Below are positions 7,848-64,000 of a DNA stretch of 64,000 nucleotides, in pieces; position 1 is the stretch's first letter, and every line of letters starts with the position of its first letter. Made by a program: the position numbers and the translations under genes. Source of the stretch: Gammaproteobacteria bacterium. Lineage in GTDB: Bacteria; Pseudomonadota; Gammaproteobacteria; Eutrophobiales; Eutrophobiaceae. The notes under the pieces are model-generated. The model was not told the origin of the DNA. It saw only the letters and a program-made list of their open reading frames with translations, and did not search any database. The stretch is from positions 1,601,288 to 1,665,287 of the forward strand of contig OZ241847.1 of the NCBI GenBank assembly GCA_965202915.1, read 5' to 3'.

Positions 7848-8562
7848 ACAGTGAGCCCGGTACGTTGACTATGCCTTCCTCGGTGTCAACTCTTACGCCC
7901 GTTCTGGTGATCTCAACAATTTCACCTTCCACTTCACCCACGCGAATCCGATCCCCGATCCGATAATGTTCAAACTCGGAATGTGCTATAAGGTTTCCTA
8001 CGTAGTCTTTCGCGCCCAGTGAAACGGTCAATGAAAGCGCTCCTCCAACCAGAATTACTATCAACAGCAGTAACTGCGTGATAAAGGTGATATCGATCAA
8101 CATCTGCTGTAATCCCAGCACGATTGCTATCACCATTATCAAAAAGTGGATAAACCTGGGAGCCGGCGAGTCCGGCGTCATCGCTTCGCTCAGGTGTGAA
8201 ACCAGATAGCGTGAAACCACTCCAAGAACATTGCCAACGCCAATGATGACAAACCCGACCAGAATGCGGGGGATGAAGTCGAGAATGTTATTAAACCAGT
8301 TGGAGAACTGCCCTTCTCCCAACATGCTGATGGCAATTACCATTGAGAAGAGTGCAACCACCCAATAAGCGGCTGACTGTGAAAGGCGGATAAGATCGGG
8401 GGATATTACGGTGGCGTCACTGGTTGTATAGCGCGACGTCAATCGATCCAGCAGTGTCAAGATTCGCCCGGATTGATACTGGGTCAGTTTCGCCAGCGCA
8501 AATCCCAGAATCAGTACAACTACTGCTGCGATTTCGGGATGATTTTCAATAAGTTCCGCCAT
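7798..8562 (-). CDS. Mechanosensitive ion channel (MscS family).
   Basis: N-terminal TM helices followed by an MscS beta-domain ('RIGDRIRVGEVEGEIVEI'). Confidence 0.8.
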   Translation of the reverse strand: MAELIENHPEIAAVVVLILGFALAKLTQYQSGRILTLLDRLTSRYTTSDATVISPDLIRLSQSAAYWVVALFSMVIAISMLGEGQFSNWFNNILDFIPRILVGFVIIGVGNVLGVVSRYLVSHLSEAMTPDSPAPRFIHFLIMVIAIVLGLQQMLIDITFITQLLLLIVILVGGALSLTVSLGAKDYVGNLIAHSEFEHYRIGDRIRVGEVEGEIVEITRTGVRVDTEEGIVNVPGSLFVSAIATKLHAYEDEH

Positions 8563-48914: not shown

Positions 48915-49215
48915 TTTGACGCCATTAAAGGAGGGTGGGTTTCCAAACCCGCCTAAAAATGTGTTTTATTACGGACGGGTTGAAAACCCGTCCTCCTCTT
49001 GTTTTATTATATTTAAAAGCCCCGATGCAGTCCGGAAATCCCGGTCGCTCAGAAAATCCGGCGTGCCGGGTGTGTGTTTTAAACAGGAGGGTGGGTTTCC
49101 AAACCCGCCTACGGGTTGAAAACCCGTCCTCCTTTTGTTTAATTATATTTAAAAGCCCCGATAGAAAATCCGGCGTGCCGGGTGTGTGTTTTATCGGGGT
49201 CGGGAGACCCCGACT
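48915..49215. repeat. REP/BIME-like mosaic of palindromic units.
   Basis: Hairpin units 'ggagggtgggtttccaaacccgcct', 'ggacgggttgaaaacccgtcc' and 'gtcgggagaccccgac', plus the shared block 'gcagtccggaaatcccggtcgctcagaaaatccggcgtgccgggtgtgtgtt'. The same units recur at five other sites. Confidence 0.8.
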
Positions 49216-49220
49216 CCTGT

Positions 49221-59266: not shown

Positions 59267-60390
59267 TGCCGGCCGGGGGGGATGATTTGGCCCCGGACGG
59301 GCATGGTTTTGCCGACCATGGTTTTGCAGATTTACTACGGGCGTGGTATCGGCGCCATGGCCGGCATGATCTGCCCTGGCAGCGAAACCGCGATCCCTAT
59401 TGCATCTGGATTTCTGAGATCATGCTGCAACAAACACGGGTGCACACCGTGATCCCGTATTTCTCCCGGTTCATCCACAGATTCCCAAACCCGGCGTCAT
59501 TGGCCGCGGCCGGGCTGGATGAAGTGCTGCACCTTTGGAGCGGTTTGGGATACTACGCTCGCGCCCGTGCGCTGCATCGCTGTGCGCGCATGATCTGCAA
59601 TGATCATGCCGGCGAGTTCCCCACCGATATTGATGTATTGCTGAAATTACCCGGAATAGGCCGCTCCACCGCCGGCGCGATATTGTCCCTGTCCCTGGGC
59701 CGGCGGCAGCCGATACTGGATGGCAACGTCAAACGGGTATTGACCCGTTACCGGGCGATCCGGGGCTGGCCGGGAACAAGGCAAATCCAAACCCGGCTCT
59801 GGGCGCTGGCGGAGCAGTTGACCCCGGAAGATCACGTTGCCGAATACAATCAGGCGATCATGGATCTGGGGGCGACGGTCTGCGTGCGCCGCTCCCCCGA
59901 CTGCACCGGCTGTCCATTGACCAACACCTGCCGGGCAAACCGCCTGGGGGTGCAGCATGATCTGCCGTCTCCGAAACCGAAACCAAACCGGCCGCTGAAA
60001 ACGACCCGATTTATAATGCTGGAAAATCACCGGGGCGAAGTATTCCTGCAGCAAAGACCGCCGACCGGGGTCTGGGGCGGCCTCTGGAGTTTCCCCGAAT
60101 GCGCCGCCGAAACCGACCTGCAACAATGGATCTATGATACACTCGGCTATAAGGTGTTGGGATGTACCGAAAAGCGAACGATCAGGCATACTTTCAGTCA
60201 TTTTCACCTGGATATCACGCCGGTTCATGTACGGGTTAAACCCTTGCCGGCAATGCCCCCTGGAATGCCCCCCGGAATACTCAGGGAAACCGCACCGCAT
60301 TACTGGTATTCTGCTAAGGAGCCACCGCGCCTGGGCCTGCCGGCGCCGGTAAAGCGACTTCTTAAATTATCCTTTGGAGACATGAAATGA
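59266..60390 (+). CDS. mutY: A/G-specific adenine DNA glycosylase.
   Basis: '[28 protein letters not shown]' HhH-GPD N-terminus, 4Fe-4S Cys cluster '[14 protein letters not shown]', and a NUDIX-like C-terminus. Confidence 0.9.
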
Positions 60391-60656
60391 GCCGTATGGT
60401 TGAATGCGTAAAACTGCAAAAGCAAGCCGAGGGGCTAAAGACCGCGCCCTATCCCGGTGATCTGGGGCGGCGTATTTTTGAGCGGGTATCACAGCAGGCA
60501 TGGCAAATGTGGTTATCCCATCAGACCATGCTGATCAATGAATATCGCCTGACCCCGATGGAACCCAAAGCGAGGCAGTTTCTGGAGCAGGAGATGGAGA
60601 AATTCTTTTTTGGCGGGGGGTCTGAGCGGCCTGAGGAATATACGCCGCCGGTTTGA
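60387..60656 (+). CDS. yggX: Fe(2+)-trafficking / oxidative-damage protection protein YggX.
   Basis: '[51 protein letters not shown]' matches YggX. Confidence 0.9.
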
Positions 60657-60682
60657 ATATAATAAAACAACGCACGACGCCT

Positions 60683-60712
60683 AACTCCCCCCCTGATAAG
60701 GGGGGGTTGGGG
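60683..60712 (+). terminator. Candidate GC hairpin ('ctcccccctgataaggggggg'), possibly a terminator after yggX or part of a REP element.
   Basis: 7-bp G/C stem with a 6-nt loop. It is followed by only a short T stretch. Confidence 0.3.
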
Positions 60713-60900
60713 GGGGTTCCAAACCCGTCTTTCTTTGCAGTCCGGAAATCCGGGTCGCTCAGAAAATTCGGCGTGCCGAGTGTGTGTTGTATCGGGGTCA
60801 GGAGACCCCGACTCCTATAAAAAAACAACACATTTAAATATAATTAAACAAAAGGAGGACGGGTTTTCAACCCGTCCTTAATAAAACATTAACCTGGAGG
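60700..60900. repeat. REP/BIME-like mosaic repeat block.
   Basis: Same units as at 48915-49215 ('gcagtccggaaatccgggtcgctcagaaaattcggcgtgccgagtgtgtgtt','ggtcaggagaccccgactcc','ggacgggttttcaacccgtcc'). Confidence 0.8.
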
Positions 60901-61012
60901 CCGCGGCGGCGCCGGCGACGGATACTCCAAAAAGAAAATTGACCAAGCGGGATCTGGAACGGCAAGCACGTCCGGGTGAGACCTGGGAGGATGTACGAGA
61001 GAGGTTAAAGTT

Positions 61013-61243
61013 ATGAGTATGATCAATGCGGAAGTGCGACGGGCTTTCATAGAGGCCGGCGTCAGTGAGGAAACTGCCGAGGCCGCGGCGAGCTCGGTCG
61101 GGGATATAAACCATCTGGTTACGAAGGCTGATTTGAAAGACTTTGAGATCAAATTAGTGAACTGGATGGTTGGGGCAATGATTGCACAAGCTGGCCTGGT
61201 CGTTGCTCTGATTTTAGGATTGCTACCGATGTTGTTGCGGTAG
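61013..61243 (+). CDS. Small DUF1640-like protein with a C-terminal membrane anchor.
   Basis: 'LVTKADLKDFEIKLVNWMVGAMIAQAGLVVALI' matches the C-terminal half of the two larger paralogs downstream. Confidence 0.5.
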   Translation: MSMINAEVRRAFIEAGVSEETAEAAASSVGDINHLVTKADLKDFEIKLVNWMVGAMIAQAGLVVALILGLLPMLLR

Positions 61244-61254
61244 ATTAATACCGT

Positions 61255-61515
61255 CTTGCACCGGTATAAATGCCGGCAATTTCTGGAGTCGGGGTCTCCT
61301 GACCCCGATACAACACACACTCGGCACGCCGGATTTTCTGAGCGACCCGGATTTCCGGACTGCATCGGGGCTTTTAAATATAATTAAACAAAAGGAGGAC
61401 GGGTTTTCAACCCGTAGGCGGGTTTGGAAACCCACCCTCCTGTTTAAAACCCACACTCGACACGCCGGATTCCCCGAGCAACCCGGATTTCCGAACTGCA
61501 TCGGGACTTTGCTCG
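61255..61515. repeat. REP/BIME-like mosaic repeat block, inverted relative to 60700-60900.
   Basis: Reverse complements of the 'gcagtccggaaatcc...' block and of the hairpin units. Confidence 0.8.
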
Positions 61516-61519
61516 AACT

Positions 61520-61850
61520 GGGCTGTGAGGGGGGATGAGTTGTGGGGTTGACGGTATTGTTGATTGTTTTACCCGCAACGGGAGTTACGGGCTCCTGTGA
61601 CGGCGGTGCTGCATCGGGATTTTGCTTGGACTGGGCTGTGGGGGGAGCTGAGTTGTGGGGTTGATGATGTTGTTGGTTTTTCTATACCCGCAACGGGAGT
61701 TACGGGCTCCTGTAACGGTGGTGCTGCACCGGGATTTTGCCTGGATTGGACTGTGAGGGGGCTGAGTTGGGGGGTTGACGGTATTGTTGATTGTTTTACC
61801 CGCGACGGGAGTCACGGGCTCCTGTAATGAGCAGTGCAGGCCCCTGCTGA
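61520..61850 (+). repeat. Tandem array of about 2.7 copies of a roughly 120-bp unit, upstream of a DUF1640 gene.
   Basis: Unit 'gggattttgcttggactgggctgtggggggagctgagttgtggggttgacggtattgttgattgttttacccgcaacgggagttacgggctcctgtgacggcggtgctgcatc', with variants. Confidence 0.8.
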
Positions 61851-61978
61851 ACAATTTTATTTGATAACCGCGTGACGTAGGTCTATACTGGCTATATGAG
61901 AGATATGAGCATACCGGTAACACCCTGTGGCAAGCGGAAGACCCCTGCCATACCGATAAAATTATCCGGTACCTGAAT

Positions 61979-62401
61979 ATGGAAGCCATCGCATTTGATA
62001 CGCATAAATTCGTCAAGCACCTGACTGAATCGGGTTTCACCGAAACGCAGGCGGAAGCCCTGGCCGGTGAGCAGGTCGATATGATTAACAGCAATCTGGC
62101 CACCAGGGCGGATATTGTCGAGGTGAAAGCGGACATCGAGAAACTACGCCTGGCCACCCAGTCAGACATAGCCGAGGTGAAAGCGGACATCGAGAAACTG
62201 CGCCTGGCCACCCAGGCGGACATAGAGAAACTGCGCGCGGACACCAAGGCCGACATTGCCGAGGTGAAGGCGGACATCGAGAAGCTGCGCCTCGCCACCC
62301 AGGCGGACATTGCTAATACCGAATCAAGACTGACGCGCTGGATCGTTGGTGCGATGATTGCACAGATCGGCGTGGTTGTCGGGTTGATTAAATTGAGTTG
62401 A
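61979..62401 (+). CDS. DUF1640-family protein, short variant (about 5 repeat units).
   Basis: N-terminus 'MEAIAFDTHKFVKHLTESGFTETQAEALA'. Repeats '(A/S)DIAEVKADIEKLRLATQ'. C-terminal anchor 'RWIVGAMIAQIGVVVGLIKLS'. Confidence 0.65.
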   Translation: MEAIAFDTHKFVKHLTESGFTETQAEALAGEQVDMINSNLATRADIVEVKADIEKLRLATQSDIAEVKADIEKLRLATQADIEKLRADTKADIAEVKADIEKLRLATQADIANTESRLTRWIVGAMIAQIGVVVGLIKLS

Positions 62402-62404
62402 CAG

Positions 62405-62640
62405 GAGTCGGGGTCTCCCGACCCCGATACAACCCACACCCGACACGCCGGATTCTCTGAGCGACCGGGATTTCCGGACTGCATCGGGGCTTTTAAATAT
62501 AAAAAAACAACACATTATTGGAGGACGGGTTTTCAACCCGTAGGCGGGTTTGGAAACCCACCCTCCTGTTTAAAACCCACACTCGGCACGCCGGATTCCC
62601 CGAGCAACCCGGATTTCCGAACTGCATCGGGACTTTGCTC
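62405..62640. repeat. REP/BIME-like mosaic repeat block.
   Basis: Near-identical to 61255-61515. Confidence 0.8.
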
Positions 62641-62644
62641 GAAC

Positions 62645-62980
62645 TGGGCTGTGAGGGGGGATGAGTTGTGGGGTTGACGGTATTGTTGATTGTTTTACCC
62701 GCAACGGGAGTTACGGGCTCCTGTGACGGCGGTGCTGCATCGGGATTTTGCTTGGACTGGGCTGTGGGGGGAGCTGAGTTGTGGGGTTGATGATGTTGTT
62801 GGTTTTTCTATACCCGCAACGGGAGTTACGGGCTCCTGTAACGGTGGTGCTGCACCGGGATTTTGCCTGGATTGGACTGTGAGGGGGCTGAGTTGGGGGG
62901 TTGACGGTATTGTTGATTGTTTTACCCGCGACGGGAGTCACGGGCTCCTGTAATGAGCAGTGCAGGCCCCTGCTGAACAA
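62645..62980 (+). repeat. Second copy of the 120-bp tandem array.
   Basis: Near-identical to 61520-61850. Confidence 0.8.
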
Positions 62981-63104
62981 TTTTATTTGATAACCGCGTG
63001 ACGTAGGTCTATACTGGCTATATGAGAGATATGAGCATACCGGTAACACCCTGTGGCAAGCGGAAGACCCCTGCCATACCGATAAAATTATCCGGTACCT
63101 GAAT

Positions 63105-63950
63105 ATGGAAGCCATCGCATTTGATACGCATAAATTCGTCAAGCACCTGACTGAATCGGGTTTCACCGAAACGCAGGCGGAAGCCCTGGCCGGTGAGCAG
63201 GTCGATATGATTAACAGCAATCTGGCCACCAGGGAGGACATAGAGAAACTACGCCTGACTACCAGCGAGAACATGGAGAAACTACGCTTGGCCACCCAGT
63301 CAGACATTGCCGAGGTGAAGGCGGACATAGAGAAACTGCGCCTGGCCACCAGCGAGGACATGGAGAAACTGCGCCTGGCCACCCAGTCCGACATTGTCGA
63401 GGTGAAAGCGGACATCGAGAAACTGCGCCTGGCCACCCAGGCGGACATTGCCGAGGTGAAGGCGGACATAGAGAAACTGCGCCTGGCCACCCAGTCCGAC
63501 ATTGCCGAGGTGAGGGCGGACATAGAGAAACTGCGCGCGGACACCCAGGCGGATATTGCCGAGGTGAAGGCGGACATAGAGAAACTGCGCGCGGACACCA
63601 AGACCGACATTGCCGAGGTGAAGGCGGACATAGAGAAACTGCGCGCGGACACCAAGACCGACATTGCCGAGGTGAAGGCGGACATAGAGAAACTGCGCGC
63701 GGACACCAAGACCGACATTGCCGAGGTGAAGGCGGACATAGAGAAACTGCGCCTGGCCACCCAGGCGGACATAGAGAAACTGCGCGCGGACACCAAGGCC
63801 GACATTGCCGAGGTGAAGGCGGACATCGAGAAGCTGCGCCTCGCCACCCAGGCGGACATTGCTAATACCGAATCAAGACTGACGCGCTGGATCGTTGGTG
63901 CGATGATTGCACAGATCGGCGTGGTTGTCGGGTTGATTAAATTGAGTTGA
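63105..63950 (+). CDS. DUF1640-family protein, long variant (about 13 tandem 18-aa / 54-bp units).
   Basis: Same N- and C-termini as the gene at 61979-62401, with an expanded 'DIAEVKADIEKLR(L/A)(A/D)T(Q/K)' repeat array. Confidence 0.65.
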   Translation: MEAIAFDTHKFVKHLTESGFTETQAEALAGEQVDMINSNLATREDIEKLRLTTSENMEKLRLATQSDIAEVKADIEKLRLATSEDMEKLRLATQSDIVEVKADIEKLRLATQADIAEVKADIEKLRLATQSDIAEVRADIEKLRADTQADIAEVKADIEKLRADTKTDIAEVKADIEKLRADTKTDIAEVKADIEKLRADTKTDIAEVKADIEKLRLATQADIEKLRADTKADIAEVKADIEKLRLATQADIANTESRLTRWIVGAMIAQIGVVVGLIKLS

Positions 63951-64000
63951 CAGGAGTCGGGGTCTCCCGACCCCGATACAACCCACACCCGACACGCCGG

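Follow-up and report, generated by a model that had tools for sequence, protein, structure and literature searches.

Tandem DUF1640/CCDC90-like genes in REP-bounded cassettes encode C-terminally anchored coiled-coil proteins that differ in stalk module number

Why would a bacterium carry, side by side, two genes that share their ends and differ so widely in the length of their middle parts? The question arises at the end of the 64,000-nucleotide stretch of DNA that we analysed (the window), positions 1,601,288 to 1,665,287 of contig OZ241847.1 (assembly GCA_965202915.1) of a gammaproteobacterium from the Eutrophobiaceae. Three open reading frames (ORFs) lie there on the plus strand, at 61013-61243 (76 aa), 61979-62401 (140 aa) and 63105-63950 (281 aa). 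An earlier note on this DNA had named the same three, and the ORF list confirms them. We call the 140-aa ORF gene 2 and the 281-aa ORF gene 3, and L001, L003 and similar labels denote the contigs compared. Genes 2 and 3 are DUF1640/CCDC90-like, and the small gene is a minimal relative with another head. On balance, we favour the view that all three belong to a lineage-specific, multi-copy family of C-terminally anchored coiled-coil proteins with recombining stalks, which would act as membrane tethers or spacers.

Performing a hidden Markov model search with PF07798 (CCDC90-like, formerly DUF1640), we obtained 56.2 bits for the 140-aa protein and 73.4 bits for the 281-aa protein, both above the gathering cut-off of 33.5. 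The 76-aa ORF had no Pfam match and thus we do not file it as a DUF1640 member; the family label of the earlier note stands for the two large genes and falls for the small one. The profile of an alignment of 94 homologues matched the head of human CCDC90B (6H9M) over residues 6-76 (E 2.9e-5), by way of the pattern FDTHxxVxxLxxxGFxxxQAE, whose FDTH, GF and QAE columns are invariant or nearly so in the alignment. The stalk of the same profile matched the archaeal protein Kcr-0859 (6H9L; E 1.1e-15), where tandem ATKEDIEALRK units are found. Between head and stalk lies a neck, LATRAD or LATRED, at residues 40-45. Among the 94 homologues, L40 and T42 of the neck are invariant, and A41 and D45 are at least 90% conserved.

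The best 19-aa hydropathy window falls at the extreme C-terminus in all three proteins (residues 122-140 in the 140-aa and 263-281 in the 281-aa protein, Kyte-Doolittle value 2.03). Together with a BLASTP match of the 76-aa to the 140-aa protein (E 6e-11 over the neck-to-anchor part), this bears out the common hydrophobic anchor that had been noticed from the sequence. The hydropathy scan of the proteins showed no N-terminal hydrophobic or signal-like segment. A class of membrane-anchored 'head-neck-stalk-anchor' coiled coils that form parallel homotrimers was reportedly defined by Adlakha et al. in 2019, and 6H9M and 6H9L are said to come from that work. For the mitochondrial homologues, this C-terminal anchor topology is reported there to leave head and stalk on the matrix side, and the matrix is the equivalent of the bacterial cytoplasm. 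Because the proteins of the window have a C-terminal anchor only and no signal peptide, and by analogy with the mitochondrial homologues, their head and stalk probably face the cytoplasm.

The 76-aa protein has a neck (LVTKAD), a short stalk, a C-terminal transmembrane segment and a head of a second, different type. It falls in a small family of nine proteins of 75-98 aa, another member of which (87 aa) is present on the source contig.

We then looked at what separates the two large genes. Tandem Repeats Finder gave in-frame periods of 54 bp (18 aa) and 33 bp (11 aa) in both. Splitting the proteins at each x-A/D-T-x-x-D motif, we read the 140-aa protein as modules of 18-18-11-18 residues and the 281-aa protein as 11-11-18-11-18-18-18-18-18-18-18-11-18, each followed by a terminal module that is common to both and runs into the anchor. 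Every module opens with the family neck motif L-A-T-x-x-D. Genes 2 and 3 thus differ only in their repeat modules, as had been noticed, with 4 against 13 full modules. The 54-bp repeats of the earlier note are there, but form a mosaic with 33-bp modules. The 18-aa module (LATQSDI-AEVKADI-EKLR) is the 11-aa module (LATQADI-EKLR) with one heptad added, and therefore all module lengths follow 7n+4.

This rule extends to the family. Among 120 homologues, the spacing between successive neck-like motifs was 11 residues in 94 cases and 18 in 63; 160 of the 212 spacings were 4 mod 7, and 11 were 2 or 6 mod 7. In a coiled coil, such a stutter spreads 7+4=11 residues over 3 turns, or 7+7+4=18 over 5, and both 11/3 and 18/5 lie near the 3.63 residues per turn of a straight helix (PMC4786415). 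Spacings of 2 or 6 mod 7 (6 or 9 residues plus 7n) force beta-layers (Hartmann et al. 2016). The motif [aliphatic]-A-T-K-[polar]-[DE] itself was described as a beta-layer at the start of the DUF1640 stalk (Hartmann et al.; PMC4786415). In the window, the motif is present in every module, though the 11- and 18-residue modules do not have the 2 or 6 mod 7 spacing of alpha/beta coiled coils. Such a coiled coil is Tcar0761/DUF3782 (5APZ; PMC4786415), which also carries many tandem [aliphatic]-A-T-K-[polar]-[DE] motifs and gave a weak sequence match. Its repeats are nonads (9 residues, 2 mod 7) that force beta-layers, whereas the modules of the window (11/18, 4 mod 7) are of the stutter class. The 7n+4 spacing fits a continuous hendecad helix better than a beta-layer. 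The AlphaFold2 model of a single chain has a short head helix and one long continuous helix that runs to the C-terminus (predicted local distance difference test score 92.6). As judged from the sequences, the family-wide limit to 7n+4 shows that selection acts on the structure of the stalk; it does not show selection on stalk length.

DUF1640 proteins occur widely among bacteria, with 3212 cluster representatives at E<=1e-3. The single-domain members among the 150 best cluster representatives of the family span 77-255 aa, bar one of 304 aa at 25% identity, and the 281-aa protein is thus at the long extreme of that set. Scanning genome and metagenome contigs, we found no close relatives, the best identity being 61%. 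Proteins 52-61% identical to the 140-aa protein over the full length, with LATKADIExLR modules, occur in Limisphaerales (L004), Binatia (L005) and Nitrospirales (L007). Matches in phyla so distant hint that the family has spread horizontally. Two or three DUF1640 genes lie within 4 kb of each other in 12 of 84 loci of other taxa, including Limisphaerales, where two loci (L004 and L006) have three paralogs within 3 kb each.

Each large gene is part of a cassette. The cassette consists of REP-like (repetitive extragenic palindromic) hairpins, a 115-bp repeat in 0-3 copies, a sigma-70-like promoter of its own, a leader of about 90 nt, the gene and a REP hairpin. The features of the locus are as follows.

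60676-60878, strand not applicable: block of REP-like hairpin modules, containing an inverted copy (60736-60815) of the REP at 61285-61364
61013-61243, plus strand: 76-aa minimal head-neck-stalk-anchor gene, by its BLASTP match to the 140-aa protein and a hydropathy window at residues 57-75
61285-61495, plus strand: REP-like modules that separate the small gene from array 1; start of the tandem duplication at 61394
61496-61827, plus strand: 115-bp tandem array 1, 2.9 units (Tandem Repeats Finder)
61861-61889, plus strand: sigma-70-like promoter of gene 2, TTGATA-17-TATACT, its hexamers conserved across cassettes
61979-62401, plus strand: gene 2, 140-aa DUF1640/CCDC90-like (PF07798), head at residues 1-39 and anchor at 122-140
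62096-62290, plus strand: in-frame module array of gene 2, three 54-bp and one 33-bp modules (Tandem Repeats Finder and module parse)
62404-62621, plus strand: REP-like block 3' of gene 2; duplication unit 2 begins at 62520
62622-62953, plus strand: 115-bp array 2, 2.9 units, identical to array 1 (Tandem Repeats Finder)
62987-63015, plus strand: sigma-70-like promoter of gene 3, with the conserved hexamers
63105-63950, plus strand: gene 3, 281-aa DUF1640/CCDC90-like (PF07798), head and anchor as in gene 2, 13 modules
63222-63839, plus strand: in-frame module array of gene 3, nine 54-bp and four 33-bp modules, of which modules 9-11 are identical in DNA
63953-64000, plus strand: REP hairpin 3' of gene 3, cut by the end of the window; its continuation is visible in L001

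The two copies lie in a tandem segmental duplication of the size proposed earlier (about 1.1-1.5 kb). Comparing 61394-62108 with 62520-63234, a span that covers the REP hairpin, the 115-bp array, the leader and the first 43 codons, we found 714 of 715 positions identical. The last 250 bases compared (62201-62450 against 63750-64000) were identical throughout. The duplication units measure 1126 bp and about 1549 bp, and the difference of 423 bp is exactly 141 extra codons. REP-like hairpin modules stand on both sides of each copy, as had also been suggested, and recur at 48975-49217 and 60676-60878; given the first of these, the modules form a dispersed family. The mosaic at 48975-49217 (minus strand) lies between two convergent genes and carries the modules GGAGGACGGGTTTTCAACCCGT, GGAGGGTGGGTTTCCAAACCCGCC and GGAGTCGGGGTCTCCCGACCCCGA.

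The upstream repeat was described before as 120 bp in about 2.7 copies; its period proved to be 115 bp, with 2.9 copies. The claim that the two upstream arrays differ in copy number failed in the window itself, where both have 2.9 units, and held among cassettes elsewhere: aligning seven cassette upstream regions, we found about 0.3 to 2.9 units. In the same seven copies, the hexamers TTGATA and TATACT, 17 bp apart, are invariant while the sequence of the spacer varies, which is the pattern expected of a working promoter, and the leader of about 90 nt is well conserved. The 115-bp array sits upstream of the -35 hexamer and not between the hexamers. Each 115-bp unit holds a hairpin with a 9-bp stem. 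Folding of the array gave hairpins only (z -2.4 for the plus strand, -4.3 for the minus strand), consistent with REP-like palindromes and not with a defined RNA. The leader (about 90-100 nt) gave no sign of structure on folding (z -0.7). An Rfam scan of 60300-64000 returned nothing beyond one match to RydC (E 0.88), far below threshold. Directly upstream of each -35 hexamer, at 61835-61860 and 62961-62986, a small hairpin (GCAGG-CC-CCTGC) is followed by TGAACAATTTTATTT, a T-rich tract. It may insulate the gene from read-through. In copy 2 of L001, the loop of this hairpin is CACA and the stem is kept.

The strongest view of how the locus changes came from L001, an independent contig (ENA ERZ25068762) that is 97.7% identical to the window over AsmA-MutY-YggX and represents a strain about 98% identical. 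All three genes are found there at the corresponding position, encoding 76, 162 and 281 aa, with REP repeats and then tkt-gap-pgk-fba after them. The two-gene arrangement is therefore not an assembly artefact. Since gene 3 of L001 is succeeded by REP repeats and tkt, no further copies lie past the point where the window ends in that strain, and the suggestion that more might follow was not borne out. Comparing repeat counts across the two strains, as had been advised, we found both the modules and the 115-bp copy number to differ. Gene 2 of L001 has two extra 11-aa modules relative to the 140-aa version. Its gene 3 again encodes 281 aa and 13 modules, in a changed order, and identical adjacent 54-bp (ADTKT) modules number two there and three in the window. 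Ahead of gene 3, L001 has about 0.9 units of the 115-bp repeat against 2.9 in the window, and it lacks the REP block at 60676-60878. Module content thus changes between strains, by this sequence comparison, and the locus is recombination-prone, as predicted.

The heads of genes 2 and 3 are 93% identical to each other in L001, while the 5' parts of the two copies in the window are identical; copy 2 of the window is only 93.6% identical to copy 2 of L001 in its 5' part. From these identities, a conversion of copy 2 by copy 1 in the lineage of the window appears to be the best account of the sameness of the two copies there.

The cassette is not confined to this locus. The 2.49-Mb source contig (2,489,980 bp), recognised as the source of the window by a protein to which the threonyl-tRNA synthetase is 100% identical, bears at least seven further paralogs, of 126, 140, 151, 162, 188 and 203 aa together with an identical 140-aa copy. 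Heads and anchors hardly differ among them, and the mix of 11- and 18-aa modules varies from one to the next. The whole cassette was also found at other loci on related contigs of the same metagenome, some of them as tandem pairs (L083; L084 and L085; L003). At least twelve copies were seen, all with intact ORFs. Over eight gene copies, the ratio of nonsynonymous to synonymous polymorphism (pN/pS) for head plus anchor was 0.18. With all copies intact, this value marks functional genes and not decaying repeats, and it indicates purifying selection on head and anchor. In the species collection, the nearest genome is a gammaproteobacterial metagenome-assembled genome whose threonyl-tRNA synthetase is 79% identical; it has a single DUF1640 gene of 81 aa with no extra module. 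The expansion in copy number and in stalk length is therefore lineage-specific.

What might such a set of proteins do? The earlier note expected length-variable, membrane-anchored coiled-coil products, and the above data support this. We propose that unequal recombination or slippage between the 33- and 54-bp modules would alter the stalk length with the frame kept. Under the 7n+4 rule, any gain or loss of a module would leave the bundle in register, and the 7n+4 periodicities (11/3, 18/5) would keep the alpha-helical bundle nearly straight. Gene conversion between cassettes would homogenise the cassette ends. The products would be inner-membrane trimers whose head and stalk extend into the cytoplasm, and one conserved 39-residue head would be held at a distance set by the number of modules. 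Taking about 0.15 nm per residue, we estimate this distance at about 12 nm for the 140-aa and about 33 nm for the 281-aa protein. The proteins may thus serve as tethers or spacers for a partner, and a molecular ruler is our most reasonable guess at the function.

Some observations weigh against this proposal. The conserved leucine at module position 1 and the T-x-x-D capping box would fit a beta-layer or helix break better than a continuous helix; the motif favours the one and the spacing the other, so that the two point opposite ways. The AlphaFold2 model is a monomer, which cannot show features of a trimer. Searching the monomer model against the PDB by Foldseek, we found no significant match, as expected for a single long helix. 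The near-perfect identity of the flanks of the two copies could in principle be an over-polishing artefact instead of gene conversion. Clustering the neighbours across 152 loci, we found no conserved gene neighbour. A porin adjoins the gene in 16 of these loci, and we read the adjacency as shared ancestry of those loci.

Neutral repeat instability is the main rival, and we regard it as a real possibility, if an unlikely one. Here, the DUF1640 genes would be functional, any coiled coil would do as a stalk, the module number would drift without meaning by slippage and recombination, and the paralogs would be by-products of REP-mediated duplication. Module order and number do change between strains 2% apart with no pattern visible. 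The closest sequenced relative has its single 81-aa copy, so a long stalk is dispensable in principle, and the lengths of the family range widely (90 to about 255 aa). Against it stand the intact frames of all copies with their strongly conserved ends (pN/pS 0.18), the module lengths held to 7n+4 in the whole family, and at least eight intact paralogs with conserved promoters of their own kept in a 2.5-Mb genome. Another explanation treats the REP-bounded unit as a mobile or selfish cassette, moved or copied by a REP-associated transposase or derived from a prophage, with the DUF1640 gene as cargo. The same REP ends at four or more unrelated loci speak for it, and so do the 451-bp small-gene cassette that is 99.8% identical at a different locus, the polymorphic REP insertion between strains and the 52-61% identical proteins in Limisphaerales, Binatia and Nitrospirales. 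Yet no transposase or phage genes stood beside the cassettes in the loci inspected, and the ten small ORFs of the window that we scanned against Pfam included no REP-associated transposase or phage gene; homologous recombination between dispersed REPs accounts for the pattern equally well. We consider the mobile cassette very improbable.

The earlier note had itself put forward a contingency or surface-variation role, in which repeat changes vary an exposed protein against phage or grazers, or act as an on/off switch. The repeats turn over fast, the paralogs are many, expression could be modulated by the variable 115-bp array that precedes the promoter, and the family has phage members (PHROG 17872, 9415) and a likeness to the N-terminus of a tail fibre (9CUY). 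But the proteins have a C-terminal anchor only and no signal peptide, so that a cytoplasmic topology is predicted, and it is the stalk that varies while the head, probably the interaction surface, hardly changes. Since each module length can be divided by 3 and no copy is out of frame, there is no on/off frameshifting or phase switching. A contingency locus would have repeat changes that shift the frame or the promoter spacing; here the units are 33 and 54 bp, and the array lies upstream of the -35 hexamer. PADLOC gave no significant match among defence systems, the hits being weak coiled-coil matches to LeoC (E 3e-6 and 9e-4). We give this role scarcely any credence, and prefer the family of anchored tethers or spacers set out above. 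A bolder version of the latter we think rather improbable: that one tail-anchored DUF1640 gene has given rise to eight or more concertedly evolving cassettes, which would form a programmable 'ruler set' of graded spacers of about 10-33 nm, with the same head and with stalk lengths and expression continually re-assorted by recombination among the 33/54-bp modules and by variable 115-bp arrays ahead of the promoters; the set would position a cytoplasmic partner relative to the inner membrane and may be linked to giant FG-GAP/cadherin adhesins.

Other searches for function gave little to build on. NCBIfam returned only sub-threshold coiled-coil matches. The two matching PHROGs families, 17872 and 9415, are of unknown function, and the literature mentioning bacterial DUF1640 offered no function.

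Comparison with known systems places the proteins more closely. CCDC90B/MCUR1 (PF07798; 6H9M) have the same head sequence, a neck motif at the stalk start, a coiled-coil stalk and a single C-terminal transmembrane anchor. They differ in being mitochondrial with a presequence, in a heptad stalk without tandem modules and in not forming multi-copy cassettes, and for the partners described for them (MCU; proline and nitrogen metabolism) no bacterial counterpart is evident here. The overall architecture is also that of Kcr-0859 of Korarchaeum (6H9L), whose tandem 11-residue ATKEDIEALRK aligns with LATQADIEKLR of the window. Its head is reportedly of another type than in the proteins of the window, and its modules far fewer (Adlakha et al. 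2019). To our knowledge, no 18-residue variant, paralog family or length polymorphism has been reported for it. ElaB/YqjD/YgaM (DUF883) and Braun's lipoprotein Lpp are small proteins that combine a coiled coil with one membrane attachment and tether a partner or set a distance. Here the analogy is functional only, as we detected no homology to the proteins of the window, and we know of no repeat-number variation or paralog families among them. The REP modules resemble the REP/BIME (bacterial interspersed mosaic element) repeats of Gammaproteobacteria in being short, GC-rich hairpin mosaics between genes, dispersed and polymorphic between strains. Unlike those, they bound a repeated gene cassette and grade into the 115-bp array upstream of the promoter.

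Further repeats surround the small gene. Inverted 80-nt REP copies at 60736-60815 and 61285-61364, 99% complementary and 469 nt apart, flank the 76-aa gene. The gene could be inverted by recombination between the two; neither L001 nor L003 showed it in inverted form. Perfect 43-nt direct repeats (60833-60875 and 61373-61415) bracket the small-gene cassette. This 451-bp cassette (60834-61284) has its 99.8% identical counterpart at L003 9822-10272, on a 389-kb contig and at an unrelated locus 3' of metF, and is only 97.2% identical to the syntenic copy in L001. At 60688-60720, 3' of yggX, there is a G/C-homopolymer palindrome, CCCCCCCTGATAAGGGGGGG then TTGGGGGGGGTTCC; the module recurs in the upstream regions of L001 and L084 and is another repeat type of the genome. 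In L001, a 150-bp composite REP unit is repeated 3.4 times in tandem at 97% identity (8050-8552) between the second DUF1640 gene and transketolase; the window stops short of the equivalent region.

At three other loci, DUF1640 cassettes stand immediately upstream of giant FG-GAP/Cadherin_3 proteins of 1291 to >3500 aa. The giant genes are located at L003 10882-14757, L083 10678 onward, L084 9404 onward and L085 2943 onward. In L003, a DUF1640 cassette is also present downstream of the giant gene, and the locus of the window is without such a gene. Just before the giant adhesin ORFs, low-complexity ORFs of 129-133 aa occur at L083 10112-10501 and L084 8830-9231, the one in L083 ending in a poly-glycine run. 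They may be the N-termini of the adhesins, split by a homopolymer frameshift in a long-read assembly.

Two antisense ORFs, of 299 aa (61585-62484, minus strand) and 425 aa (62711-63988, minus strand), were considered as coding and rejected, since they mirror the repeat array and it is the sense frame that has the Pfam match, a conserved start and the anchor. They run through the module arrays and the 115-bp arrays, and comparable ones were seen in 80 related loci. We take such long antisense ORFs as a by-product of the codon composition of the repeats, and gene callers may report them. We also rejected the upstream in-frame extension (MGLYWLYE...) that some gene callers give to the genes; it has no start codon in the window and overlaps the -10 hexamer.

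The family and its architecture are already known, and the mitochondrial homologues MCUR1 and CCDC90B are actively studied. What is unusual is that this lineage has multiplied the gene into recombining cassettes with REPs at their ends, and that one stalk is exceptionally long. Apart from these points, this is an ordinary case of length variation driven by tandem repeats in a coiled-coil protein. The locus is a natural series in which head and anchor are identical, the stalks have 4 to 13 modules and further changes are seen from strain to strain, and such a series may be used to ask if stalk length matters. Modules that obey 7n+4 and yet carry a beta-layer-like motif could also help to settle how this motif behaves in long coiled coils.

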